Sequence record: NC_028901.1 | DNA length: 43,900 bases | DNA from: Escherichia phage slur05 | Direction: 5' to 3' (one strand) | Shown: positions 1 through 40,727 of the stretch, in pieces | Layout: every line of letters starts with the position of its first letter | How positions within the stretch are numbered: position 1 is the first letter of the stretch | The notes under the pieces: generated by a model | Database searches by the model: none | What the model saw: the letters and a program-made list of their open reading frames with translations, nothing else | Told to the model about the DNA's origin: nothing | Translations under genes and position numbers: made by a program

Positions 1-1192
1 GTTCTCATCCCTGCTGGTCGTAGACGGCACCGGACCGGAGAAGGACCGTATTGCCGCGCTTGAGAGCGACGCTAACGTGGTTTGTGTTAACTACGATGTG
101 GTTGAGTGGCTGGTCGACTATTACGGCGATGCGTGGCCCTTTACGGTCGTTGTTGCCGATGAATCGACTAAGCTGAAAGGCTATCGTAGCAAGCAGGGGA
201 GCAAGCGCGCCCGCGCACTGGCAGCGATTGCACATAAACACGTCAAGCGCTGGATTAACCTGACCGGCACACCAGCGCCAAACGGGCTAAAAGACCTGTG
301 GGGGCAGACGTGGTTTGTCGACGGTGGCGAACGACTCGGCAGTAGTTATAAGGCATTCACCGATCGCTGGTTCATTAGCAAGCCTGTTAAGCCTGGAAGC
401 TTCACGATGCAGCACGCCCCGCTAAAGAACTCCGAGAAAGAAATACAACAACGCCTGTCTGACGTATCACTAACCGTTGACGCGGCTGAATACTTCGGAT
501 GCGACAAGCCAATCTATACGCCGGTTGTTGTGGACCTGCCGAAGAAAGCCCGCAAGATCTACGACCAGTTTGAAAGCGAGCTATTTGCCGAACTGGAAAG
601 CGGAACAGTGGAAGCGGCGAACGCGGCATCGAAGACAATTAAGTGCCTTCAGCTTGCATCCGGGGCCGTGTATAAGGTGGATGAAGACGGCGAACGGACC
701 GACAAGTGGGTGAAGATTCACGACGCGAAGCTGGACGCGCTGGAAAGTATCGTGGAGGAGTTGAACGGTGCGCCGTTGCTCGTTGCGTATCAGTACAAGC
801 ATGACCTGGCACGTCTTAAGAAGAAATTTCCGCACGGCGTTGCGCTGGGTAAAGGTAAGCAGGGCAATAAGGATATGGAAGCGTGGAACAGAGGCGAGAT
901 CCCCATCATGTTTGCGCACCCGGCATCGGCGGGCCACGGCCTTAACTTGCAGGACGGCGGTCATCACCTGGCAATCTTCTCCGATACCTGGAACTTTGAG
1001 CACTTTTCGCAGATCGTTGAACGTATCGGGCCGGTTCGCCAGATGCAAGCAGGACACCCCCGTCCGGTATTCGTCTACATTATCCAGGCGCGCGGAACAC
1101 TGGACGAACTGGTCGCCGAGCGTCGCGACAGTAAGCGGGATATTCAGGACGACTTGATGGAATACATGAAAGCTAAAAAGGCGCGCAAATGA
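1..1192 (+). CDS. SNF2-family helicase, C-terminal part (5' end outside window)
   Basis: Frame is open from base 2 with no upstream stop, so the gene starts before the window. Translation shows SNF2 motifs: VVADEST (DExx box), LTGTPAPNGLKDLW (motif III), GLNLQ and QIVERIGPVRQ (C-terminal helicase motifs). Confidence 0.75.
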   Translation, partial: FSSLLVVDGTGPEKDRIAALESDANVVCVNYDVVEWLVDYYGDAWPFTVVVADESTKLKGYRSKQGSKRARALAAIAHKHVKRWINLTGTPAPNGLKDLWGQTWFVDGGERLGSSYKAFTDRWFISKPVKPGSFTMQHAPLKNSEKEIQQRLSDVSLTVDAAEYFGCDKPIYTPVVVDLPKKARKIYDQFESELFAELESGTVEAANAASKTIKCLQLASGAVYKVDEDGERTDKWVKIHDAKLDALESIVEELNGAPLLVAYQYKHDLARLKKKFPHGVALGKGKQGNKDMEAWNRGEIPIMFAHPASAGHGLNLQDGGHHLAIFSDTWNFEHFSQIVERIGPVRQMQAGHPRPVFVYIIQARGTLDELVAERRDSKRDIQDDLMEYMKAKKARK

Positions 1193-1884
1193 CAATCTGG
1201 TCACTGTTTGACGGCAGCGGCTTGATGATTGAGCGTGCGGCTGAGATGGGGCATAAGTGTTATTGCTTCAACTACTCCGAAGCCGATCACGGGTCTTACC
1301 TTGACTACCGGATTTATGGTCGCGGAATCCGGTATCGCAATGAGTTTATCGATCTGGACTTTGTAGACCGTGCGATGAATGGCGATTTCGGTACGCCAGA
1401 TATCATCTATGCGTTTCCTCCGTGCACGGATCTGGCAGTGAGCGGCGCGCCAGCTTTCCCGCGCAAACGTGCAAAAGACCCCGCCTTTCAGCTTAAGGCG
1501 GTGCGCACCGCGAAGATCGCCGCTTACCTGGGTGACTTCTTCGAAGTGCCATATATGATTGAGAATCCGCGCAGTGTGCTTTCCACCCAGTGGCGCAAGC
1601 CGGATCACTCGTTCGACCCGTGGGAGTATGGGGGGTATCTGCCGGAGGATGACGTACACCCGCTCTTCCCGGAATACATCAACGCCCGCGATTCATATCC
1701 GAAGCTGACTTGCTTATGGACCGGCAACGGCTTCCGTATGCCAGAGAAGAAACCTGTTTTCGTTGAAAAAGGGTACTCGAAACAGTATAGTCGCCTCGGT
1801 GGTAAATCCGCTCGTACAAAATTAATCCGCTCACTCACTCCGCGCGGCTTCGCGATAGCGGTTAACGAGGAAAATTTAAAATGA
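1189..1884 (+). CDS. Mini C5-cytosine methyltransferase-like protein (231 aa)
   Basis: ATG overlaps the helicase stop (ATGA). Ordered C5-MTase-like motifs: LFDGSG (motif I), FPPCTD (PC catalytic motif), IENPR (ENV-like), RSLTPRGFA (motif IX-like). Too short to carry a normal target-recognition domain. Confidence 0.45.
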   Translation: MTIWSLFDGSGLMIERAAEMGHKCYCFNYSEADHGSYLDYRIYGRGIRYRNEFIDLDFVDRAMNGDFGTPDIIYAFPPCTDLAVSGAPAFPRKRAKDPAFQLKAVRTAKIAAYLGDFFEVPYMIENPRSVLSTQWRKPDHSFDPWEYGGYLPEDDVHPLFPEYINARDSYPKLTCLWTGNGFRMPEKKPVFVEKGYSKQYSRLGGKSARTKLIRSLTPRGFAIAVNEENLK

Positions 1885-2204
1885 ACGCTACATACGAAAC
1901 CATCGATTTTTCGGTCGCAATGACTAACCAGCTATTCACCTACGACAGCAAAACCGGAGTCATCCGTCTGAAGTCCGCCGGCTGCAAGATTGGCAACATC
2001 AATACTGCCGACGGCGGAACACGTATCGAATGCAACGGAAAGACGCTGTCTGGCGCACGCGTGGCGTGGATTATTGAGACGGGCAATACAATCCCTCCAG
2101 GCTTCGCCGTTGTGTGCCGCCAGCGCACACCAGGGCACTACGGCAACCGAATCAGCAATCTGTATTTGGTAGACGTTGCACGCGACCCTAACTTTTATGC
2201 GTAA
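1881..2204 (+). CDS. HNH_3/homing-endonuclease-like protein, probably degenerate
   Basis: ATG overlaps the previous stop. Pattern IECNGKTLSGARVAWIIETGNTIPPGFAV...GNRISNLYLV resembles HNH_3 proteins, but the expected DH/HN catalytic residues are replaced. Confidence 0.3.
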   Translation: MNATYETIDFSVAMTNQLFTYDSKTGVIRLKSAGCKIGNINTADGGTRIECNGKTLSGARVAWIIETGNTIPPGFAVVCRQRTPGHYGNRISNLYLVDVARDPNFYA

Positions 2205-2238
2205 ATTGGTTGCATAATTAGATTGGTTGCATTATCTT
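2205..2238 (+). promoter_or_regulatory. Promoter-like element: tandem ATTGGTTGCAT boxes, TTGCAT-17-TATCTT
   Basis: ATTGGTTGCAT at 2205-2215 and 2222-2232; -35-like TTGCAT 2210-2215, -10-like TATCTT 2233-2238. Confidence 0.4.
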
Positions 2239-2284
2239 AAGGGTGTCCGGTTGGACGCCCTTTTTAATACCTGGAGACAACACG

Positions 2285-2749
2285 ATGAAAATTTTACAAG
2301 AAGAGAAAAATTACTGGGCCGCGCAATGCCTCGAAGCCCGCGAACAGGCCGAACGTGTTAGCGCGCTGGCGGACACCTACCTGGCGAGCTATGAAGGCGA
2401 GGAGAAGGCGCGCAAGGAATTAGAGGAGCGCTTCGAACTGCTGTATGAGTTGATGGGTATTATGCAGCGCACCGGGTACACAACCTCCGTCGCGCTAAAC
2501 CGCATCACTGCCGAAGGTCTGCGCGAGCATTGCAAACGGGCCGAGGCGTACGTGCGCCCCAAAGGTCGCCAGTCTAAGATCGACCGTAAAGACCTGGTAC
2601 GTATGGCATGGCGCAACCCCACAAACGGCAAATTCTACCCGGATGCGCGCCCTTTAGGTGTGTCGGAGACGCAGCGATTGCAGCGAATCCTGAAAAAAGG
2701 TGACAAGATTGCCCTGTACGCGATAGATCCAGATCATGCAGAAGAGTGA
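2285..2749 (+). CDS. Hypothetical protein (154 aa)
   Basis: ORF with GGAGA 7 nt upstream of ATG 2285; preceded by promoter-like tandem ATTGGTTGCAT boxes; predicted helical/coiled protein. Confidence 0.5.
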   Translation: MKILQEEKNYWAAQCLEAREQAERVSALADTYLASYEGEEKARKELEERFELLYELMGIMQRTGYTTSVALNRITAEGLREHCKRAEAYVRPKGRQSKIDRKDLVRMAWRNPTNGKFYPDARPLGVSETQRLQRILKKGDKIALYAIDPDHAEE

Positions 2750-3245
2750 GCAAAAAGATGGCTGGCGCACGCCGCCAGCTTTATTTAAACCACTGCGTCG
2801 GAAGTACCGATTCCGTTACGATATGGCGGCAAGCGATGCCAACCACCTGCTACCGCGTTACTTCACGGCGGAGCACAGCGCGCTTGATGTGGACTGGGCA
2901 GAGTTGAAAGGGTGGAAGTGGTGCAATCCGCCGTACTCCGATCCGCTGCCGTGGGTAGAGTGCGCTGCGCACGGACGCCGGACCGTCATGCTACTGAATC
3001 AGGACACGTCGACGAAGTGGGCGAAGCTGGCCAGGAAGACTGCAAACCTGATTATTTTGCTGGACTGGCGGATCCGGTTTATACACGCCGTCACCGGTAA
3101 GGTCGGGCCGAGCAACAACAAGTGCCAGCAATTGATAATCTTTGAAGAAGTGCCGCCAAACGGCAGCGCACAAATCGAAATAATGAGCGAAGGTGAATTA
3201 AATGAATATCTTAGTCGTCGACCGAAGTCCTCGCGTCGTGGATGA
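2736..3245 (+). CDS. Phage Dam-family N6-adenine DNA methyltransferase
   Basis: N-terminal WRTPP and the NPPY motif (CNPPYSD) typical of small phage N6-adenine methyltransferases; start overlaps the upstream gene. Confidence 0.65.
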   Translation: MQKSEQKDGWRTPPALFKPLRRKYRFRYDMAASDANHLLPRYFTAEHSALDVDWAELKGWKWCNPPYSDPLPWVECAAHGRRTVMLLNQDTSTKWAKLARKTANLIILLDWRIRFIHAVTGKVGPSNNKCQQLIIFEEVPPNGSAQIEIMSEGELNEYLSRRPKSSRRG

Positions 3246-3423
3246 AATAATTAAACGCTACCAGGTTTTCCCTGGAAATAAAGTAAGGCGCGCAAGCCAA
3301 CCTCATCAATTGCTGGGCCTTGACCTAACTGGCTGGCTTGTCATGACGGCGCGTTGCCATCTTGTGTGCGACGCATTCTCGGCCCGTATTGTACGTGAAA
3401 ATTTAATGGCGGAATTAAAATGA
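3202..3423 (+). CDS. Hypothetical small protein (73 aa)
   Basis: ORF overlapping both neighbours by a few bases, consistent with translational coupling; no recognisable motif. Confidence 0.3.
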   Translation: MNILVVDRSPRVVDEIIKRYQVFPGNKVRRASQPHQLLGLDLTGWLVMTARCHLVCDAFSARIVRENLMAELK

Positions 3424-3890
3424 AACTACTGATTTGCGATTTAGATGGCGTTATCAACGGGTCAAGCAGTGTGCGCGACGACCTAGTTCCGGGGATCAAG
3501 ACTAAATCAACGTTTTGGGCGAAGTGGCATAAGGCCCACGTCCGCGAAGACATTAATTATGACATGCTGCCGTTATTGCGCATGTACGCTAAACAGGGCT
3601 TCGACATTGCGTACCTGTCAAACCGCCAGTCAGATTGCTGGGAGTCAACGAAAGAGCAATTGGATAGATTCCCGAAAGGTCGTCTGTTCTTACGCCATAT
3701 GCTTGATGACACGCCGCCTCCAGAGTACAAGGCCCGTTCCGTATTTGGCCTGGTGTGCTATGCAGAAGTTAACGAACTGGTCATCATTGACGACTGCGCG
3801 AAGAACATCGCCGCCATCAAACGGGCGTGTGAAGAACTGGTCCCGCATATTTATTCTGTGAATCTTGCAAAATTCACTTGCAACCAATAA
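3420..3890 (+). CDS. HAD-superfamily hydrolase/phosphatase-like protein
   Basis: N-terminal DxDGV motif (LICDLDGVING) and a C-terminal aspartate motif (VIIDDCAKN), as in HAD phosphatases. Confidence 0.5.
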   Translation: MKLLICDLDGVINGSSSVRDDLVPGIKTKSTFWAKWHKAHVREDINYDMLPLLRMYAKQGFDIAYLSNRQSDCWESTKEQLDRFPKGRLFLRHMLDDTPPPEYKARSVFGLVCYAEVNELVIIDDCAKNIAAIKRACEELVPHIYSVNLAKFTCNQ

Positions 3891-3906
3891 TGCAACCAAC
3901 TATATT
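3878..3906 (+). promoter_or_regulatory. Sigma70-like promoter TTGCAA-17-TATATT
   Basis: -35 TTGCAA 3878-3883, 17 bp spacer containing TGCAACCAA, -10 TATATT 3901-3906; upstream of gene 3953-4474. Confidence 0.5.
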
Positions 3907-3952
3907 AACCACATCGGGAGGCAATACCGCCTCCCCTAAAAGGAGACAAACC

Positions 3953-4474
3953 ATGAAAGCATACGAATACTGCAAAAACGCCGCCACCACTATGGAACAG
4001 CGCGGGAAAGAAAACGGCTATGACAACGCGAAAGACGAACGCAGCGCTAAACAGGTCGCCGCCGTGTTTAACGCGCTTACCGGGCGCAACCTTACCGAGC
4101 AAGAAGCCTGGACCTTCCTGATCTGCCTGAAGCTGGTGCGCCAGCACCGTAAGCACCAGGAAGATAACATCGTGGACCTGGTAGCATATGCCGCACTGCT
4201 GGGTGAGTCTTACATGACCGTGCATGACGAGATTCAGATCGATACAACGGCAGCACAATTCGACAGCCTCAAAGGCTGGCCCATCTCCACCGGCGGAACG
4301 TGGCGTCCTTCGGCATCTGCGGGCAAGACTGTCAAAGCCGCCGATTTCGGCGTCGTAGCCCAGGACGTCCAGCCTATTGTCGTGCTCACTGGCGAGGATG
4401 GGTCCAAAATCCTCATGACGCCGGAAGATTTCCGTAATATGGAAAAAACACTGGTGACTGGCGCACTTAAATAA
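3953..4474 (+). CDS. Hypothetical protein (173 aa)
   Basis: AAGGAGA RBS before ATG 3953; upstream promoter TTGCAA-17-TATATT (3878-3906); followed by a UUCG-loop hairpin at 4483-4498. Confidence 0.5.
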   Translation: MKAYEYCKNAATTMEQRGKENGYDNAKDERSAKQVAAVFNALTGRNLTEQEAWTFLICLKLVRQHRKHQEDNIVDLVAYAALLGESYMTVHDEIQIDTTAAQFDSLKGWPISTGGTWRPSASAGKTVKAADFGVVAQDVQPIVVLTGEDGSKILMTPEDFRNMEKTLVTGALK

Positions 4475-4482
4475 TGCTAATA

Positions 4483-4498
4483 GCGGGCTTCGGCCCGC
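4483..4498 (+). other. Stable UUCG-tetraloop hairpin without a U-tract
   Basis: GCGGGC-TTCG-GCCCGC directly after the stop of gene 3953-4474; no T-run, so more likely a stability/processing element than a terminator. Confidence 0.35.
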
Positions 4499-4516
4499 AT
4501 CAATGAAGGATCCACA

Positions 4517-5092
4517 ATGTACGGCGAATACGAAATATCTGGTAAACAATTCCACCTGGCGGCAATGATAGCAAGCATCGAGTTTGACCAGTGGAGATAC
4601 AAGTCTGACGCGTGCAAGCAAAGCCGTCTTGTCGGTGTGCTGGGCGAGATGTTTGCAGGCATGTACCTCGAAGGGCAGGCGGGCGGGCGTAGCTGTATTC
4701 CACAAGGTTTGCTAATGCGTACCGGCATGTTTAGCGCTAACACTATCGACCGCGGCGATATTATCATGGTCGGCAAGCGCAAGGTTAAGTCCGGCCCCGA
4801 CTACAAAGAACACATGATTGATGCCGTCTGGACATATGAGGTTAAGGCCGCAAGCGGCATACGTCGCGGACTGGTAGAGGCGCGTTGCGCTCGCGAGTAT
4901 CTCACTCGTCGAGTTGCCGGTGTTATTCTGGTGGGGGTGTCGTTAGGGCCGCAAAGCGCGCATGGCGTGATTGAGGACATCGCAGAGCCATACGTGATTG
5001 TTAATGACTGGCCTTTAGTGGAAGTGGAAGGAAAGGAATACTACGAAAGCCCCCTGGTGCGGCGCAAAATGGACTGGGAAAACTCAAACTAA
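4517..5092 (+). CDS. Hypothetical protein (191 aa), possible PD-(D/E)XK-like nuclease fold
   Basis: ORF ending at a bidirectional terminator; segment PDYKEH...IDAVWTYEVK loosely resembles a D...(D/E)xK nuclease motif. Weak. Confidence 0.35.
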   Translation: MYGEYEISGKQFHLAAMIASIEFDQWRYKSDACKQSRLVGVLGEMFAGMYLEGQAGGRSCIPQGLLMRTGMFSANTIDRGDIIMVGKRKVKSGPDYKEHMIDAVWTYEVKAASGIRRGLVEARCAREYLTRRVAGVILVGVSLGPQSAHGVIEDIAEPYVIVNDWPLVEVEGKEYYESPLVRRKMDWENSN

Positions 5093-8075: not shown

Positions 8076-8100
8076 AAAGGGGCCGGATGGCCCCTTCGCA
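8074..8100. terminator. Bidirectional terminator-like hairpin between gene 7110-8075 and the J-like gene
   Basis: 8 bp stem AAGGGGCC/GGCCCCTT with 4 nt loop; T-rich flank on the minus strand. Confidence 0.5.
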
Positions 8101-21983: not shown

Positions 21984-22010
21984 AAAATCGCCCGCTTTCG
22001 CGGGCGATCT
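21984..22010 (-). terminator. Terminator/attenuator hairpin between scaffold and capsid genes
   Basis: 9 bp stem ATCGCCCGC/GCGGGCGAT with loop TTTC, T4 tract on the minus strand. Confidence 0.45.
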
Positions 22011-26695: not shown

Positions 26696-28081
26696 TTAGT
26701 AGAAGTCTACAGTTGGAACAACGGCGATTGGGCGAATCACTGGGAACAGGTGCGCAATTGGATAGCCCGCGGCATCGTTCATGTGGTCCACACCGGCGGT
26801 TTTATCCGGCTCGCCTTTCTTCAGGTCGTAAACCTGCTGTTCCAGACATTTCGCTAGTGTAGGGCATTTATCCAGGTTGACAAAATACTGGCGCACACCC
26901 TTCGAGTTGCACATCATAGTATTCATCGCGATCAATCGGTCTTTCACAGGTGGGTTAACACTGTCGTATTCCACCTCGAAGCCCGCGTCTTCCAGTTGTG
27001 CGATATCTGACGACGATGCGTTAACAGTCTTGCGAGACTTGCCGCTGCTATCCGGGTAAACGACAACACGACCGGCAGCACAATGATCGGGGTAGCGCTC
27101 CTCGATCGCCTCAATCATAGCCGGGGTATCAAACAGGTCCACAAATTCATCCACTGCGTGGATCTCGTCGCGGAACTCCTTGTTTTCGGTGATGCGCTGC
27201 CGTCTGACGTACACGACCGCCGCCATCTTCGTGACGTTAAAGTCCATGCCGATAATCAGCGTGTCTTCCGGCTGCACTTCTTCGGTGCTGGCGTTCTCCT
27301 CCCGGTTGAACATCTTGTACACCGCGCCCGACGTAAGGTTGACAAACAGGCCGTTCAAGTACGCATCAATCAGGTTAGCCGGGTATTGGCTGCGCAGCGT
27401 GTCGATAAAGTCTGCCGGTAAGTGGTGGTTATCGGTGGTCTTCGCCCGGATCAAACGCTTCTGGCTATCCTTCTCCACTTCGAAAATTTGATACATCGCC
27501 CGGTAGCCTTCAGGCGTTGACACGATGACGAACTGGCGGACGAAGCCAGCACGCAGACGACCGAGCAATTTGTGATATGCCGCCAGCGCGACGTCTTGCT
27601 TCGTGGTATCGAACTCGTCGGCAACAATCCACGCGGCATTAACCCCGATCAGGCGGGTATAGTTCTCCATTGACTCACAGATAACGCGGGTCCATTTGCC
27701 TTTCACAAGCACGTTATAGATCTTGTCCTGCTTATTGAACTTCCACCGGAAGCCCGCCTCGTCGAATGCCTTTTCCAATTCCGGATACATGATTTTAACC
27801 AGGAGGGGAATCGTCGGTTCTGTTACGATGCCATCATGACCGGGGTTAAGTGTCAGAAGCTGGATTACCTTACGGGCTGCGACCCACGACTTCCCACCAC
27901 CGAAGCCGGAACACAGGCCGAGGATTTTAGTCTTCGTGTCACGCAGCAGTTCGACCTGGTGCGGAAGGCAATCTGGCTGGTAAAGGCGGACGGCCTGCGC
28001 AACGCGTGTCGGGCGTGGCGGTCGGTTACGCTTTGCGATCGCGCGTTCCAGTGCGCGGTGTTCTGCCGCATAGTTACGCAT
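26696..28081 (-). CDS. Terminase large subunit
   Basis: Walker A-like LGLCSGFGGGKS, Walker B-like IVADEFD, C-terminal nuclease-like Asp motifs; start overlaps the small-subunit stop. Confidence 0.8.
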   Translation of the reverse strand: MRNYAAEHRALERAIAKRNRPPRPTRVAQAVRLYQPDCLPHQVELLRDTKTKILGLCSGFGGGKSWVAARKVIQLLTLNPGHDGIVTEPTIPLLVKIMYPELEKAFDEAGFRWKFNKQDKIYNVLVKGKWTRVICESMENYTRLIGVNAAWIVADEFDTTKQDVALAAYHKLLGRLRAGFVRQFVIVSTPEGYRAMYQIFEVEKDSQKRLIRAKTTDNHHLPADFIDTLRSQYPANLIDAYLNGLFVNLTSGAVYKMFNREENASTEEVQPEDTLIIGMDFNVTKMAAVVYVRRQRITENKEFRDEIHAVDEFVDLFDTPAMIEAIEERYPDHCAAGRVVVYPDSSGKSRKTVNASSSDIAQLEDAGFEVEYDSVNPPVKDRLIAMNTMMCNSKGVRQYFVNLDKCPTLAKCLEQQVYDLKKGEPDKTAGVDHMNDAAGYPIAHLFPVIRPIAVVPTVDFY

Positions 28082-28653
28082 TATTCACCCTGACCTTTGC
28101 CGGAAGGTTCGACAACTACGTCGCCGTTATCATCTTCGTCGTCATCCAGCGGTACATCGTCGCGGACGCCGTGGTTTGCTTTAAGCAGGAACGTAGCGAA
28201 GCCCGCCGCGATGGTTACGCCGCCAGCTTCCATCAGGAAAGTTTTCTGCAACTCCATTGCGTCCGCCATCGCCTCGGCAAACTCCTCATGCGCACGCGCC
28301 CAGCGATACAAGCAAGCTACACCCACGCCGATTTCAGCGGCAAATCGGCCGAAGGTTGGCATTTTGTTCCGGGGGATTACTTGCGCAGCGCCTTTATCGG
28401 AGTAGTTGACCTGCCATGCGTCGGCGTCGGCAAAATAGCGGCGAAGCTGGTCGCAGTAAACGGATCGGTAGTCAGTAGGGCGTCCACATTTGCCGCCTTT
28501 ACGGCGCTTTCCGTACTCGATTTCAGGTCCGAGATTGGTGTGCTCGGTTTGCTCGCCTGGTTTACGGCGCGGGGTAACTGCTACTCGTCCGTCCAGTTTA
28601 GCGCGACGGCCTTTAACTTTAATTTCTGCCATGATATAAGCCCTTTTGTGCAT
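28081..28653 (-). CDS. Terminase small subunit
   Basis: Terminase_2-like signature (PTDYRSVYCDQLRRY...FAAEIGVGVACLYRWARAHEEF) and acidic C-terminus; directly upstream of the large subunit. Confidence 0.6.
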   Translation of the reverse strand: MHKRAYIMAEIKVKGRRAKLDGRVAVTPRRKPGEQTEHTNLGPEIEYGKRRKGGKCGRPTDYRSVYCDQLRRYFADADAWQVNYSDKGAAQVIPRNKMPTFGRFAAEIGVGVACLYRWARAHEEFAEAMADAMELQKTFLMEAGGVTIAAGFATFLLKANHGVRDDVPLDDDEDDNGDVVVEPSGKGQGE

Positions 28654-28749: not shown

Positions 28750-28962
28750 TTAAACGTCGCGCCCGTAGTATCGGGTTAACATGCTTTGTACTTCTCTTAT
28801 CGCGCCTTCTGTGTAGCGTATTTGCGACAGTATTTCGATCCTCTCGTCCATCGACATTCCGACTGCCGCTGCCGTTCGTTCAAATCGGCGCAAGCCTTCG
28901 AGTTGCTTGCGTAGTTCTTTCAGGCGGGTGGCCTGCGTGCTCATGAATACTTGTCTGATCAT
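28750..28962 (-). CDS. Hypothetical small protein (70 aa)
   Basis: ORF overlapping the end of the upstream gene (ATGA-type), followed by terminator 28715-28740. Confidence 0.35.
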   Translation of the reverse strand: MIRQVFMSTQATRLKELRKQLEGLRRFERTAAAVGMSMDERIEILSQIRYTEGAIREVQSMLTRYYGRDV

Positions 28963-30101
28963 TTCAACATTTCCGGGCTAATGGTTAAGCGCGCTACTTC
29001 GCCGTAGTTGGCGCTATAGGTTATCACGTTTGCACTGCGTCCGCTCATCCAACCGCCTCGGCTGGCGTAGGCATCCTTCGCGGCAAGCGTGCGGTGCTGT
29101 TCAACAATCATGTTGCGCGATTCGACAATCTTCTGGTGGTGCAGGTGTCCTACGTGCGCATAGCTGTACTGGCTGGACCCGAACGCCTCACGAAATTTCG
29201 AAATCATGACCGGCTCGATAGCGTCAAATCGCGCTTTGTGCCCGTGGTGGAAAAATAGTGTGGTCTTACCGTGCTGCACCATTTTGTAGACGTCCGGGGA
29301 CGTATCCACATCGACGCGCGGCTCGTTCTCGTACAGCGTGTTGAACATCTCAGCAAGCCAAATCATGCCTGACTCGTCATGATTACCCTGGACGATTAGC
29401 AGTTTGACTTTGTGGTGTTTTTGCAGCGCCAGGTCTACCACGTTGCGCACCATGCGGATCATGTAGCGGACTAACTTCTGGTATCGGGTGTCGGCGTCCA
29501 ATACGTGACCGCTTGCCGGTGTGACGGCATCAAGGCTATCAAAGTGCGCCATATCGCCGAGGATATTGATCACGGCAGTGCCTGCGTCCGGTGCGCGGGC
29601 GAAGGCTTCGACAAACCAGCGGTAGAACAGGTCTTCGGCGATCGCCATATCCCAATCTTCGCCAGTCTCCTCGCCCCATGCCAGCATACCCAGGTGGAAG
29701 TCGGACACGGTGTACAGGTTGAGCAAGTCTAGCGCCTGGATCGGTACTGGCGGGGCGTTTACTGGCGCTGCCGGTGTGATTTCGCTGTTCATACCCTCGA
29801 CAACAGCGCGCATAGCTTCGAGTTGGCGCTCCTTGTCCTGCTCAGTGATGACCCACGACATGACCTCTTCGCCATTACCGCGCACCAGGGCCGATACGCG
29901 CTTAACCCCAAAGCCATCGGCAACGCGCTTACGGATCACGGCATAATTGCCATGACCAATCCCCTTTTTCGACAGGCGGGCTTTGCGCATATAGACATTT
30001 CGAAGTGCAATGCCGTATTTCTTCGCAATCTCTTTAACCGTAGTCCCTGCCTGAATTTCTGTGATCAATTGCTCATCGGTAATTTTAGTTTGCGGGTGCA
30101 T
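28959..30101 (-). CDS. HTH domain fused to calcineurin-like metallophosphoesterase
   Basis: N-terminal HTH-like segment (TVKEIAKKYGIALRNVYMRKARL); phosphoesterase motifs GDMAHFD (GDxxH-like), GNHDESG (GNHD/E) and GHLHH. Confidence 0.55.
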   Translation of the reverse strand: MHPQTKITDEQLITEIQAGTTVKEIAKKYGIALRNVYMRKARLSKKGIGHGNYAVIRKRVADGFGVKRVSALVRGNGEEVMSWVITEQDKERQLEAMRAVVEGMNSEITPAAPVNAPPVPIQALDLLNLYTVSDFHLGMLAWGEETGEDWDMAIAEDLFYRWFVEAFARAPDAGTAVINILGDMAHFDSLDAVTPASGHVLDADTRYQKLVRYMIRMVRNVVDLALQKHHKVKLLIVQGNHDESGMIWLAEMFNTLYENEPRVDVDTSPDVYKMVQHGKTTLFFHHGHKARFDAIEPVMISKFREAFGSSQYSYAHVGHLHHQKIVESRNMIVEQHRTLAAKDAYASRGGWMSGRSANVITYSANYGEVARLTISPEMLK

Positions 30102-30124
30102 ATTTAATTAATTCCTGATTAGTT

Positions 30125-30148
30125 GACCGTGGACAATATACCACGGTC
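30125..30148. promoter_or_regulatory. Inverted repeat GACCGTGG-N8-CCACGGTC upstream of the HTH-phosphoesterase gene
   Basis: Perfect 8 bp arms, 8 nt spacer, ~25 bp upstream of start 30101; no flanking T-tract, so operator-like rather than terminator-like. Confidence 0.35.
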
Positions 30149-30304
30149 CATATGGCGGCGGGCTATATCAATTCGCAAATAACCATGCCGATGAAAGCTG
30201 CGGTGGTCCAGATTGCCAATACCCAAATATCTTTACGTGCCATCTTGATTACTCCTCTCGTTGGTTGGTTGCAGTATGGCCCCTATGTTGGTTGCGAGTC
30301 AAGC

Positions 30305-30333
30305 AATAAAAAGCCCGGTATTATCCGGGCTTG
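30305..30333 (-). terminator. Rho-independent terminator at the end of the lysis cassette
   Basis: Stem AGCCCGG/CCGGGCT, loop TATTAT, T5 tract on the minus strand. Confidence 0.6.
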
Positions 30334-30338
30334 ATTGT

Positions 30339-30506
30339 TTACGCTGCGGGGCCGGGTTCTTCCGGCGGTGGTGGGCTTGGCAGCTTCGCATCAAAGACCC
30401 CCGCGTGGTTGATAGAGTCCGCGATGATAGCGCGTGCGCCTGGGTCTTCGGTTTTAGCCAGTGCGGCAAGCGCGTCCGCATTATGATCAAGAATACTTTT
30501 TAACAT
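30339..30506 (-). CDS. Hypothetical small protein (55 aa) downstream of endolysin
   Basis: ATG 30506 after a GAGGGGA SD; MLKSILDHNADALAALAKTEDPG...PPPPEEPGPAA; followed by terminator 30305-30333. The longer overlapping ORF (30339-30743) is rejected. Confidence 0.4.
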   Translation of the reverse strand: MLKSILDHNADALAALAKTEDPGARAIIADSINHAGVFDAKLPSPPPPEEPGPAA

Positions 30507-30522: not shown

Positions 30523-31014
30523 TTATGCAGCGTTACGACCGATTCGTTCGGCAACGTCCCACTGCTTACCATCAAACAACGCCTGTCTGCCGATTGCACG
30601 GCGTACCAGACCCTTAAGCACTTCGCCGCCTTGCTTGCGGAACTGCGGCAGCGTAGCACGGACCTTCGCCCAGTCGCCCAAGCGCACCGCGTCGTCGAAG
30701 TCATTGGCAATATGGTCCGGTACGATCGGACCTTGACCTGCATTGATAACCAGGTCCACCAGCGCGTCGAATTGCGCCTGGTTAATGCTATTATGCGCGT
30801 ATTTGTTCACCCAGTCCTCAGCATACGCCACATCGCGCTTAAGTAGCTCCAGCGCTTCCGCGCGGGTAATGCTTCGAGGCGGGTTAGTGCCAGTGTGACC
30901 ATAACCCCAGGTGTACAGGCCGCGGGCCTGCTCTTTCTTAGTCGCGAAATACGGCACCGGGCTAAACGTCTCCCATGCTGCCGTAAATCGTAGACCGTTG
31001 TCACTGAATCGCAT
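30523..31014 (-). CDS. Endolysin (GH24-type lysozyme)
   Basis: 163 aa; GLYTWGYGHTG and the general layout resemble phage lysozymes; adjacent to membrane (holin-like) ORFs. Confidence 0.65.
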   Translation of the reverse strand: MRFSDNGLRFTAAWETFSPVPYFATKKEQARGLYTWGYGHTGTNPPRSITRAEALELLKRDVAYAEDWVNKYAHNSINQAQFDALVDLVINAGQGPIVPDHIANDFDDAVRLGDWAKVRATLPQFRKQGGEVLKGLVRRAIGRQALFDGKQWDVAERIGRNAA

Positions 31015-31532: not shown

Positions 31533-31584
31533 AAAAAAGTCCCAGTAAGTTTTATCTCACTGGGACTATATCACGCTTGCATAA

Positions 31585-33151: not shown

Positions 33152-33478
33152 TTATTTCGCAAGCTGGGCGAATAGTTCACGCTGGGCTTTAATCCGGGCG
33201 ACGTTTGTCACTGCCGTCTCGCCGATCCCGAAGCGATACGCAAGGCGCTCACGGGCAAATGCAAGCGCGTAGTCCTGGATTGCGTTCGCCAGTGGCTGGA
33301 TCTCCGCCATCGTGTCGAAGCGGCGCTCCAGCATACAAGCGATGGCCTGCTGCGTGACGCGAACAACGGACCACGCTGCCGATAGTCTTTCGACCGCTTC
33401 CGCTCCTTCACCGGCGAACTCCGCCGCTTCTTGTGCCGCCGCCATAGCCATTGCGTAATTCCAGATAATCGCTTTCAT
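33152..33478 (-). CDS. Hypothetical protein (108 aa)
   Basis: Ala-rich helical ORF, first gene downstream of the 33.5-34.0 kb regulatory region. Confidence 0.4.
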   Translation of the reverse strand: MKAIIWNYAMAMAAAQEAAEFAGEGAEAVERLSAAWSVVRVTQQAIACMLERRFDTMAEIQPLANAIQDYALAFARERLAYRFGIGETAVTNVARIKAQRELFAQLAK

Positions 33479-33699
33479 TGTTCAGTCCTCATGTTGGGGT
33501 GCAACCAATATAGCAAGGTGCCAGGCGGAACGCAACCAATATTAATCACGCGCATGAAAAAGTTGATCGCTATCTGCTGTGACTGCAAACCGCATTTTTC
33601 ACTTCGCATAATGCAACTCGCATTGGTTGCCTAGTTCATCCGCGACCGCACTTCGCATCATGCTGCCGTGTATTTTGCAATCCCCGGATTTTATTCAGT

Positions 33700-37968: not shown

Positions 37969-38147
37969 TGAAATTCTTCGTCCTGGCAACATGCCACAAA
38001 TTAGACGACCATTGCTCTTTTATTGTTGAAAACACCAACGAAAGCAATTGCTTTGCGGACGCACAAAATGAAGTTAAGCGCCGCGGCGAAAAAGCGGGCA
38101 AGGCTAATGTGAAATATGTAATTGTCCAGTTTACACGGGTGGAATAA
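37968..38147 (+). CDS. Hypothetical small Cys/His-containing protein (59 aa)
   Basis: ATG overlaps the upstream stop; stop overlaps the downstream ATG (TAATG); below the 60 aa cutoff of the supplied ORF track. Confidence 0.35.
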   Translation: MKFFVLATCHKLDDHCSFIVENTNESNCFADAQNEVKRRGEKAGKANVKYVIVQFTRVE

Positions 38148-39577
38148 TGGCGATTAAACCAAAACGTAAAACGCAATCCGGTAGCAACACGGAGCATTCA
38201 TTACTCGGCCCGTCCGGGTCTAAAAAATGGATGGGTTGCCCCGCCGCCCTGGTGGTGGAAAAAGATATCCCGAACGAATCCGGGCAAGCGGCGATTAACG
38301 GTACGAGTATGCACACCGTATCTGAAGTCGTGCTCAACCGCATCATTGCCGGTGAGAAGATGATAACCGCGAAGACGTACAAAGGGTGCTACGTCGAGAA
38401 TGAAGGCAAGGGGCCAGTAAAGGCGCACCCGAAAGCGCCGAAAGGCGGCGTACTGGTCAACGACGACATGGTGAAACAGTGCGATGCGTACATCGACCAC
38501 TGGCGACCGCTCCTCGAAGTGGCAGAGTTTGTCCAGCTTGAGATGCGCGCCGATCTGACCCGCGTCCTTCACTCAGACTACGAGATCGACGGCAACCGGG
38601 TTAAGACGTTCGGTACTGCAGATATGGTCATGGTCATGAAGAAGACCGACGGTACGTACATGCTGATTGTTGGCGACCTGAAGACTGGGTGGCATAAGGT
38701 CGAGGCGAAAGAAAACAAACAGCTTATGTTGTATGCGCTGGGCCTGCTGCGCAAGCTGAAAACCATGTACGACATTACGACCGTGCGCCTGGTTATCTTC
38801 CAGCCGTATTGCGGCGGGGCGTCGGAGTGGGATATTTCGGTAGAAGCCCTGGAGATATTCGCGAAGTTTGCGTCCAAGCGTGCTATCGCCGCCCTGGAAG
38901 CGTACGCCCGCGGCAAAAAGGGACTAACCCGTGCCGACTTCCGACCGAGCGTTGATGCGTGTCAGTGGTGCAGATTTGCGGATCAGTGTAGCGCCCGCGC
39001 TAAGGCTGCAATCGACACGATGACCCCACCAACGGCAACAGACGAAGACCTGGGCGACGACGTGAGTATTGCGACAGAGGAAGAATGCGCCAATCACGAC
39101 CGCAATATGGCCCGCGAAGCCCGCAAAGCGGCACGACGTGCTAAGCGTGGCAAGAAAGAAGCGGCCCCCGGCGCTATGACCGCCGCAGAACTGCGCAAGG
39201 CTTATGAAGGCCTGGACGCAATGCGCCAGCACATCAAAGCTATCGAGTCCGCGGTATTCAAAGCGGTAATGGCGGGCGATGGCGAATCGCTGGGCCTCAA
39301 GATGGTTGCCGGTAAGGAAGGGATCCGTAAGTGGGCGGACGAGAGCGAAGTTATTGAAATCTTCACGAAGGCCCGGATCAAGCGCGATGTGATGTACAAA
39401 GAAACATTGCTCAGCCCTACGGATGCCGAGAAGGTACTGAAGGACGAAAAACCGAAAGTGTGGGCGAAGCTGTGTGATAAAATCACGCGCGCACCTGCCA
39501 AACCGGTGTTAGCACCAATCGACGACCCGCGCCCTGCGTGGTCGGAAGCTACTGACGAGGACTTAAGCAATGAATAA
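38147..39577 (+). CDS. PD-(D/E)XK nuclease, DUF2800/Cas4-like
   Basis: N-terminal LLGPSGSKKWMGCP, nuclease core (GTADMVMV...GDLKTGWHKVEAKENKQLMLYALG), Cas4-like Cys cluster (CQWCRFADQC); charged C-terminal extension. Confidence 0.6.
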   Translation: MAIKPKRKTQSGSNTEHSLLGPSGSKKWMGCPAALVVEKDIPNESGQAAINGTSMHTVSEVVLNRIIAGEKMITAKTYKGCYVENEGKGPVKAHPKAPKGGVLVNDDMVKQCDAYIDHWRPLLEVAEFVQLEMRADLTRVLHSDYEIDGNRVKTFGTADMVMVMKKTDGTYMLIVGDLKTGWHKVEAKENKQLMLYALGLLRKLKTMYDITTVRLVIFQPYCGGASEWDISVEALEIFAKFASKRAIAALEAYARGKKGLTRADFRPSVDACQWCRFADQCSARAKAAIDTMTPPTATDEDLGDDVSIATEEECANHDRNMAREARKAARRAKRGKKEAAPGAMTAAELRKAYEGLDAMRQHIKAIESAVFKAVMAGDGESLGLKMVAGKEGIRKWADESEVIEIFTKARIKRDVMYKETLLSPTDAEKVLKDEKPKVWAKLCDKITRAPAKPVLAPIDDPRPAWSEATDEDLSNE

Positions 39578-39837: not shown

Positions 39838-39902
39838 GGCAACCAAGCCGAACGGGGTGGCTTCCAATAACCCCGATGCATGTGAAAATGAGGAATTGGA
39901 AA

Positions 39903-40685
39903 ATGGCTAAAGTCAACCTGAAAAATGTGCGCGTATGCTTCCTGAAAATTTGGGAACGTGATACCCCTAAACAGGATGGACAAAAACCGGCATACCGTGC
40001 CGTGATTCTTCTGGATAAAGAAGATCCGCAGGTGGACAAAGTGGAAGCGGCAGCGCGCGCAGTGCTCACCGACAAGCTGAAATCCGAGAAGAATGCCGAT
40101 AAGTGGATGGACCGCCACTACGCCCAGGATTCTAAGGAATGCGCAGTGCGCGACGGCGACGAGCGCGATGAAGTAACCGAAGAATTCGAAGGCATGTTGT
40201 ATATCAACGCCAAATCGTTCAAACAACCAATCATTCAAACGTCACTCGGCGAGAAGCAGACTGAACAAGGTCTGACCATCGACGGCGACGAGATTGAAGG
40301 CCAGGAGATCTACTCCGGTTGTTATTGCAACGTGTCCCTTGATATTTGGGCGTGGAACAACACCAACGGCAAGGGACTCGGTGCTGGCTTGCTGGGTTTA
40401 CGCTTCCGTGATGACGGTGAAGCCTTCGGCGGTGGCGGGTCTTCATGCTCCGATGAAGACCTGGACAACGACGACGAAGACGAAGCACCGCGCAAGGCTA
40501 AGAAGTCAAAACGTCGTGATGACGATGATGAAGATGACAAGCCGCGCAAGTCCAAGAAATCCAAGCGCCGCGATGACGACGACGATGAGGAAGATGAAAA
40601 ACCTCGCAAACGTCGTAAGCCACGCGATGACGAAGATGAGGACGACGACGAAGACGAAGCACCACGCAAACGTCGCCGCCGTTAA
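39903..40685 (+). CDS. ssDNA-binding protein (DUF2815-like) with charged repeat tail
   Basis: GAGGA RBS; promoter TTGACC-17-TAAATT (39809-39837); partner of DUF2800 nucleases; C-terminus has DDDEDE/PRKxKKSKRR repeats; terminator 40704-40727. Confidence 0.5.
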   Translation: MAKVNLKNVRVCFLKIWERDTPKQDGQKPAYRAVILLDKEDPQVDKVEAAARAVLTDKLKSEKNADKWMDRHYAQDSKECAVRDGDERDEVTEEFEGMLYINAKSFKQPIIQTSLGEKQTEQGLTIDGDEIEGQEIYSGCYCNVSLDIWAWNNTNGKGLGAGLLGLRFRDDGEAFGGGGSSCSDEDLDNDDEDEAPRKAKKSKRRDDDDEDDKPRKSKKSKRRDDDDDEEDEKPRKRRKPRDDEDEDDDEDEAPRKRRRR

Positions 40686-40703: not shown

Positions 40704-40727
40704 AAGCCCGCTTAATGCGGGCTTTTT
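40704..40727 (+). terminator. Rho-independent terminator after the SSB gene
   Basis: Stem AAGCCCGC/GCGGGCTT, loop TTAAT, then TTTTT. Confidence 0.65.

Follow-up and report, generated by a model that had tools for sequence, protein, structure and literature searches.

What does the protein do that Escherichia phage slur05 encodes just ahead of its terminase genes, and does it act in packaging, in the control of its own gene or in DNA metabolism? The gene lies within a window of 43,900 nucleotides, the whole stretch of DNA analysed here (NC_028901.1); LN881731 (Escherichia phage slur06, genus Dhillonvirus) has 100% DNA identity to this region, and ~150 related phage records match it at 80–95% identity. 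The open reading frame (28959..30101, minus strand) starts with ATG and encodes 380 amino acids plus a stop, a product identical to slur06 CUL02243.1. A first-pass annotation had described it as a fusion of a helix-turn-helix (HTH) domain with a calcineurin-like metallophosphoesterase (MPE), preceded by a perfect inverted repeat. Both the gene and this architecture are already in public annotation: the slur06 record labels the product “Calcineurin-like phosphoesterase superfamily domain protein”, the records of relatives use phosphoesterase, DNA repair exonuclease, HTH luxR-type domain protein and winged-HTH protein, and several note the combination of HTH and MPE. Some records label homologues “putative serine/threonine protein phosphatase”.

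All features of the surrounding locus described here lie on the minus strand. Upstream, two holins precede an endolysin (30523-31014), which is followed by a 55-aa ORF (30339-30506) and then by an intrinsic terminator (30311..30332; TTTTTATT after a GC-rich stem of 8 bp), at which the lysis unit ends; a 26-codon ORF (30163-30243) separates the terminator from the inverted repeat. A Shine-Dalgarno AGGA (30113..30116) is found 11 nt before the ATG of the HTH-MPE gene, and the ribosome-binding region AATCAGGAA is nearly invariant among 14 Dhillonvirus upstream regions. The gene does lie upstream of the terminase genes, as the first-pass annotation had it, with a 70-aa helical ORF (28750..28962; PHROG 20931, E=7e-49), whose start overlaps the MPE-gene stop (ATGA), intervening before terS (28081..28653), terL (26696..28081) and the portal gene. 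This small ORF is present in six Dhillonvirus loci and absent from four, and small ORFs following distant MPE homologues had no detectable kinship to it. We thus rejected the idea of a conserved small downstream partner gene, the ORF being confined to some Dhillonviruses; judged by its distribution, it is an accessory gene and not an obligate partner of the MPE.

An AlphaFold2 model built from an alignment of 84 homologues (pLDDT 93.2, pTM 0.79) begins with a three-helix HTH domain at residues 9-45 (29967..30077), with helices at 9-17, 22-29 and 33-45 and pLDDT of ~93-95. The segment that follows (46-63) was modelled at low confidence (pLDDT ~53) and leads into a linker module delineated by predicted secondary structure and conservation, which comprises a beta-hairpin (64-88) and a helix (90-106) and is encoded at 29784..29912. 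In family alignments this module is family-specific, has the consensus KGTSTLY..DG....QWVKT, and contains two nearly invariant residues, G77 and W83. The remainder of the protein (residues 121-380; 28962..29741) is the MPE catalytic domain, which adopts the beta-alpha-beta-alpha-beta sandwich fold of the superfamily and carries all five of its metal-binding motifs (DxH, GDxx(D/H), GNH(D/E), H and GHxH) as DFH (134-136), GDMAHFD (182-188), GNHD (239-242), HHGH (285-288) and GHLHH (318-322). The protein also has a TPxSGHxLDxD loop. The proposed fusion is therefore borne out, by the HTH helices in the model and by the complete set of MPE motifs.

Completeness of the catalytic motifs in an accurate alignment was a point on which the first-pass annotation had made its reading depend, and across the 84 homologues (33–81% identity to the query) the motifs are complete and their key columns invariant. 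D134, H136, G182, D183, N240, H241, H286, G318 and H321 are invariant, and H186, D188, D242, H285, H288 and H319 nearly so. Since all of the MPE metal ligands are invariant, the protein is expected to be an enzyme and not a degenerate scaffold; as far as can be judged from its sequence, it is a binuclear metallophosphoesterase, competent in catalysis, from the superfamily's nuclease branch, with an N-terminal HTH.

Domain searches, which had also been suggested, gave a divided answer. The protein matches PHROG 704 (“DNA repair exonuclease”) over its full length (E=8.4e-161; residues 5-380 aligned to profile positions 2-390 of 390) and PHROG 284 (“exonuclease”) at 2e-13, and HTH families of Pfam are matched across the family, but the protein alone falls below Pfam thresholds. 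Its scores missed the gathering values of both MPE models (19.7 bits against 21.5 for PF00149 and 22.7 against 27 for PF12850), a shortfall that arises because the family is too divergent for these models, which match 22 and 14 of the 84 members, respectively, at E<=0.01. The HTH matches of the single protein were likewise sub-threshold (HTH_28, E=0.02). Among the 84 members, the N-terminal region matched HTH_1 (20 members), Sigma70_r4_2 (12, best 1.5e-9), HTH_8 (11), HTH_23 (9), GerE (6, best 2.4e-8) and also HTH_28, and the family profile weakly matched GerE/LuxR-type HTH structures (E=0.03). We conclude from these profiles and the model that the N-terminal HTH is a genuine, family-wide feature for which DNA binding is predicted. 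A sequence search of the PDB with the protein returned spurious repeat-protein matches only, PADLOC had no match for it, and its HTH had no relationship to the TerS of the same phage.

The family is large. Of 50,697 phage records, 2,062 (~4%) contain a full-length homologue; most are from phages of Escherichia, Klebsiella, Salmonella, Vibrio and Campylobacter. The family comprises 3,743 clusters at 90% identity; at 50% identity it comprises 4,659 clusters with E<=0.001, 1,131 of them with E<=1e-30. PHROG 704 is annotated in Dhillonvirus, Drexlerviridae, Guernseyvirinae, Jedunavirus and others, and phage T1 encodes a homologue, gp16, that is 45% identical over its full length (E=1e-108). Carriers are mostly virulent phages; at least one homologue (L111) belongs to a phage that encodes a large serine integrase. 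Bacterial chromosomes have essentially no close relatives of the gene: megablast against complete E. coli genomes found no match, and among 185,579 representative bacterial genomes the sole exception was a 3.8-kb MAG contig.

We compared the protein with characterised members of the MPE superfamily. T1 gp16 and PHROG 704 share the same HTH, linker and MPE over their full length with no substantive difference, and the database names of the family derive from superfamily similarity. The nearest folds to the model are DP1, SbcD and Mre11. Against Mre11/SbcD (and T4 gp47), ~186-190 residues align at 14–17% identity, with a profile E of only ~0.2-1. Motif II of the protein is GDxxH, as in Mre11. 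Mre11 has a C-terminal capping domain and Rad50-binding helices, both of which are missing here, whereas the N-terminal HTH and beta-hairpin module has no counterpart in Mre11. Dhillonvirus Bas84, which is 92% identical, has 68 annotated genes and no Rad50/SbcC gene among them, and none adjoins the MPE gene in 21 diverse locus clusters. Without a capping domain and a Rad50/SbcC partner, the protein is thus not an Mre11/SbcD. The small subunit of archaeal PolD, DP1, a 3'-5' proofreading exonuclease, is 13% identical; it has an OB-fold and a DP2 partner, whereas the phage protein has its HTH/beta-hairpin N-terminus and the phage has no DP2, and these two absences exclude an assignment to DP1.

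Other comparisons led to the same outcome. The MPE of cluster A mycobacteriophages (A10ZJ24 Gp48; Bxb1 gp47 and L5 gp54) is a stand-alone protein of ~255 aa encoded among replication genes, with motif I at residue ~10 and neither HTH nor linker module; the spacing of motifs III-V can be aligned between the two, but the family profile did not match Bxb1 gp47 significantly (E=0.007, probability 5%). Bxb1 gp47 doubles as a recombination directionality factor. On these profile comparisons, the family of A10ZJ24 Gp48 appears to be kin to the HTH-MPE family at the superfamily level only. The lambda Ser/Thr protein phosphatase (PPP) and PdeM belong to the same superfamily as well. We rejected membership of the PPP type, the combination of the signatures GDxHG, GDxVDRG and GNHE with a close fold not being found in the protein, and of the ligase-associated endonuclease PdeM (TIGR04123), for which the score is far below the NCBIfam cut-off even though this very weak match is the only one in NCBIfam. 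Top Foldseek matches include the class III cyclic-nucleotide phosphodiesterase Rv0805 and GpdQ (E ~7e-8 to 5e-7). As none of these characterised families shares its defining features with the protein, we place it in a separate MPE clade, to which nucleases come closest in structure.

Adjacency to the terminase genes is a property of some lineages only and not a trait of the family. In one locus the MPE gene lies between terL and a P22-type portal gene (L071) and in another before a Mu-type portal gene (L059). On a T4-like contig it is found between the clamp-loader gene and regA, with gp59 and gp32 also near, and at one further locus after a DEAD helicase. In T1 and tunus it follows helicase, VRR-NUC and Dam genes and precedes the lysis genes, and in the Jerseyvirus Ent3 it occupies an island inside the tail module. 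In several independent lineages the MPE lies directly upstream of a Pnk-type HAD phosphatase (phrog_415), often with a dNMP kinase (phrog_139) and/or an ATP-dependent DNA ligase nearby. Gene orders of this kind include MPE, HAD Pnk-type phosphatase and dNMP kinase (15 Kagunavirus-like loci); MPE, HAD_PNKP, kinase and ATP-dependent DNA ligase (L082); MPE, HNH, HAD and ligase (L081); and MPE and pseT (Jedunavirus SBP). Endo VII, HNH, ATP-dependent ligase and dGTP diphosphohydrolase genes are other neighbours. In slur06 a phrog_415 HAD phosphatase (3420-3890), a phrog_10530 “DNA ligase” (2243-2749) and a PD-(D/E)XK exonuclease (38147-39577) are encoded away from the MPE gene, as is the phage's own family-A-type polymerase, and no dNMP kinase is detectable.

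The first-pass annotation had further proposed that the inverted repeat upstream of the gene might be bound by the HTH. A perfect 8-bp repeat, GACCGTGG-N8-CCACGGTC, is indeed present at 30125..30148 and forms a putative, partly conserved dyad, but several observations indicate that it is unexceptional. The window contains 16 perfect 8-bp inverted repeats with spacers of 3-12 nt, against 8.8 +/- 3.4 in Markov shuffles. Several of these 16 are terminators. The octamer occurs in the window only in its two arms (1.6 occurrences expected), and no half-site copies were found elsewhere in it. The predicted hairpin (-16.7 kcal/mol) has z = -1.57, a fold energy matched by 13 of 200 shuffles. The recognition helix ALRNVYMRKARLSKKG is identical in 12 Dhillonvirus orthologues, yet in four of them (L005, L007, L010 and L012) the arms are no longer complementary, so the dyad is not kept wherever the helix is. 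Pairing of the arms across Dhillonvirus upstream regions is 79% compared with 75% in shuffles, covariation is not significant (reached by 58 of 500 shuffles), and no comparable repeat lies upstream of the T1, tunus, SBP and Ent3 homologues. We therefore rejected the repeat as a conserved functional dyad, whether as an RNA or DNA structure or as an operator, given its chance-level count, fold z-score and covariation and its broken arms.

Conservation in this region centres on a different element. In 14 Dhillonvirus sequences the strictly invariant upstream bases are CC.TG.TATATTG (columns C15, C16, T18, G19 and T21-G27), which include an extended -10-like element, TGGTATATT (TGnTATATT; 30135..30143, minus strand), a putative promoter whose TG lies within the left arm and whose TATATT forms the first six bases of the repeat loop. 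An exact second copy, TGCTATATTG, occurs elsewhere on this strand, between genes and 28 nt ahead of an ORF, and Kagunavirus-like loci have TGGTTAAAT at the same distance upstream. Genome-wide, TGnTATATTG is not enriched (6 matches against 7.2 expected), and it is thus only conservation and position that argue for a promoter. Such a promoter would start a transcription unit that takes in the MPE gene and continues into the terminase genes. The inverted repeat is probably an incidental or lineage-specific symmetry around this conserved extended -10 element.

Literature searches for functional work on the family turned up genome notes and one virion proteome, and no biochemistry for any member. 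On balance, we lean towards a reading in which the HTH tethers to DNA a Rad50-independent MPE nuclease or phosphodiesterase of phage DNA metabolism. The enzyme would be a metal-dependent (probably Mn2+) DNA exo- or endonuclease or DNA-end phosphodiesterase, held on DNA by an HTH flexibly linked through residues 46-63 and working without a Rad50/SbcC partner, and it would either process DNA ends, in replication, recombination or repair, or break down host DNA. This reading is favoured by the invariant metal ligands and confident model, by the GDxxH form of motif II together with the full-length match to PHROG 704 and the match to PHROG 284, by the family-wide HTH, and by the independent lineages that place DNA and nucleotide enzymes beside the gene. 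It also has a precedent in a phage MPE: A10ZJ24 Gp48, which stands alone, has phosphodiesterase activity, and it both damages the DNA of the host and counters defence (PMC12287305). Several points count against it, namely the absence of a capping domain and of a Rad50/SbcC-like partner, the faint profile links to Mre11/SbcD and to Bxb1 gp47 given above, and the PD-(D/E)XK exonuclease that the phage already encodes. We infer that the substrate is DNA rather than nucleotides or protein, that the HTH binds DNA, and what the biological role may be.

Within this nuclease reading, a special case is that the enzyme degrades the host chromosome and so feeds nucleotide salvage in virulent phages (T1-like phages, Dhillonvirus and Kagunavirus), which we judge unlikely. 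T1 and TLS break down host DNA and recycle its nucleotides, and a 2024 re-annotation of TLS states that the enzyme responsible in these phages has not been identified (PMC11447400), and T1 has a full-length homologue in gp16. Classical T1 mutants with a defect in degrading the host chromosome have been described (Roberts and Drexler 1981). The HAD phosphatase and dNMP kinase directly following the homologue in the 15 Kagunavirus-like loci and L082 would suit such a salvage pathway, the host-DNA disruption by the mycobacteriophage MPE (PMC12287305) provides an analogy, and the near absence of close relatives from E. coli and other bacterial genomes is in keeping with it. In T4, the MPE nuclease gp47 serves host DNA breakdown together with gp46, which we also count in its favour. 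All of this support is purely associative, however; slur06 has no detectable dNMP kinase, at least one homologue resides in the integrase-bearing phage noted above, and the idea does not account for how the phage's own DNA escapes. In its most developed form, which seems to us equally doubtful, the whole family (the slur06 gene, T1 gp16 and PHROG 704) would be the host-chromosome nuclease of T1-like and related virulent siphophages, Mre11-like, Rad50-independent and guided by its HTH, providing dNMPs for salvage by the HAD phosphatase and dNMP kinase encoded next to it, setting the level of generalized transduction and possibly being delivered with the virion. The same neighbourhoods can be read in terms of repair: damaged DNA (or RNA) ends, such as those left by host nucleases, might be healed and sealed by the phage's Pnk-type phosphatase and ligase together with this protein, acting as a phosphodiesterase or exonuclease that cleans 3' ends. 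The kinase, phosphatase, ligase and pseT neighbours in L082, L081 and SBP, the HAD phosphatase and “DNA ligase” that slur06 encodes elsewhere, and the very weak match to the ligase-associated PdeM are consistent with this, which we regard as quite unlikely all the same. A little less probable again, and outside the nuclease reading, is a phosphodiesterase acting on nucleotides or cyclic (oligo)nucleotides, for instance to remove immune signals of the host or to alter nucleotide pools, with the HTH serving localisation or regulation. Rv0805 and GpdQ are among the top structural matches, and the dGTP diphosphohydrolase, dNMP kinase and HAD phosphatase neighbours fit a nucleotide substrate equally well, a point that weighs against the nuclease reading.

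Two further explanations start from the position of the gene and its upstream region. The product could be associated with the virion or linked to packaging: expressed late with the terminase operon and attached to DNA by its HTH, it would be packaged along with the DNA and carried into the next host. We consider this very unlikely. The slur06 gene is the first after the terminator and forms one unit with terS and terL, the terminase and portal neighbours in L071 and L059 point the same way, and the orthologue ORF44 was detected in CsCl-purified virions of the Dhillonvirus vB_EcoS-B2 by 13 unique peptides and 36.6% coverage, more than for several tail proteins (PMC5945888). The same preparation, however, also contained the product of the 55-aa ORF, the DNA polymerase and the replication exonuclease (PMC5945888), and carry-over of DNA-binding proteins is therefore likely. 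Synteny, moreover, speaks against the packaging factor that the first-pass annotation had entertained, as T1, tunus, T4-like phages, Jerseyvirus and others carry the gene in replication, lysis or other modules. Least likely of all, and in our view highly improbable, is an autoregulated DNA-binding enzyme or repressor with the 8-bp repeat as its operator, or a protein phosphatase. A dyad centred on a -10-like hexamer is a classic repressor geometry, and the outer arms GGACCG/CGGTCC are retained in 9 of 14 Dhillonvirus sequences. Because the arms are broken in some orthologues despite an identical recognition helix and covariation is not significant, autoregulation through the repeat, as an operator of the protein's own HTH, is unsupported.

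The observation that drew attention to this locus is therefore correct but ordinary, and its inverted repeat is not significant. The gene adds nothing beyond public annotation, and its value is as a pointer to a widespread and active-looking enzyme family, carried by ~4% of sequenced phages including T1 and many therapeutic phages of Escherichia, Klebsiella and Salmonella. Should the family turn out to supply the T1-type host-DNA nuclease, or else a nuclease for end processing or counter-defence, a conserved step in the biology of virulent siphophages would be explained, and there would be a bearing on transduction safety in phage therapy.

Homologues of the helix-turn-helix (HTH)-metallophosphoesterase (MPE) in other phages recur in a gene string in which the HTH-MPE gene is followed by a HAD phosphatase gene (phrog_415) and then a dNMP kinase gene (phrog_139); a gene for an ATP-dependent DNA ligase or for a dGTP diphosphohydrolase accompanies them in some cases and not in others. 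This string was found at locus L015 (4122-5179) and 14 similar loci, as well as at L082 (2161-4386), L081 (6591-8573), and L119 (5116-5610); it occurs in unrelated phage lineages, and the stop and start codons of its genes often overlap. In one environmental phage (L105) the MPE homologue directly follows a gene (121-4839) for a polyvalent protein of 1,573 aa that carries ART-PolyVal and LPD38 domains. Polyvalent proteins of this type usually enter the host together with the DNA.

Two of the functional classes that adjoin the MPE gene in other phages are also encoded in the window, both on the + strand: a stand-alone Pnk-type HAD phosphatase (3420-3890; phrog_415, E=1e-30) and a small protein of a "DNA ligase" family (2243-2749; phrog_10530, E=7e-96). 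The + strand further encodes a DUF2800/PD-(D/E)XK exonuclease (38147-39577) and an Enc34-type ssDNA-binding protein (39876-40685), which likely form a recombination pair; with this exonuclease, the phage has a second nuclease that is unrelated to the MPE.

Small ORFs lie on both sides of the MPE gene, all on the - strand. A 70-aa helical ORF (28750-28962; phrog_20931) has a start codon, ATG, that shares bases with the MPE gene's TGA stop (ATGA). Six Dhillonvirus loci contain this ORF and four otherwise collinear ones lack it; it thus behaves like a cassette, either present or absent, immediately upstream of the small terminase gene terS. On the other side, a 55-aa acidic ORF (30339-30506; phrog_11068) separates the endolysin gene from the terminator upstream of the MPE gene. 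Its orthologue in the related Dhillonvirus vB_EcoS-B2, ORF46, was detected at 94.5% coverage in purified virions, and the 55-aa product may be an unrecognised small virion protein. Closest to the MPE gene, a 26-codon ORF, MARKDIWVLAIWTTAAFIGMVICELI (30163-30243), is preceded by a strong Shine-Dalgarno sequence, GAGAGGAG, and is predicted to encode a single hydrophobic helix. This ORF is kept in seven Dhillonvirus sequences with mostly synonymous changes, and is missing from others. The slur06 record carries no annotation for it; in Bas84 the same DNA is covered by another annotated reading frame, Bas84_0066, which looks less conserved than the 26-codon frame.

The whole window contains 16 perfect inverted repeats of 8 bp whose arms are separated by a short spacer, about twice the 8.8 expected. 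In several, a GC-rich stem leads into a run of T (for example 30311-30332, 40704-40724, 8077-8096, and 21987-22008), and these are therefore probably terminators; a further terminator, with a 12-bp stem, lies at 31538-31567. Promoter-like sequences were also present on the - strand. The extended -10-like sequence TGCTATATTG has a second exact occurrence in an intergenic gap (33506-33515), 28 nt before the ATG of a 108-aa ORF (33152-33478), and could mark another promoter of the kind proposed upstream of the MPE gene. In addition, a sigma-70-like sequence, TTGACT-18-CATACT (30273-30302), immediately follows the terminator and precedes the 26-codon ORF. If this sequence is active, the leader transcript of the MPE gene would contain the inverted repeat in front of that gene as a hairpin.
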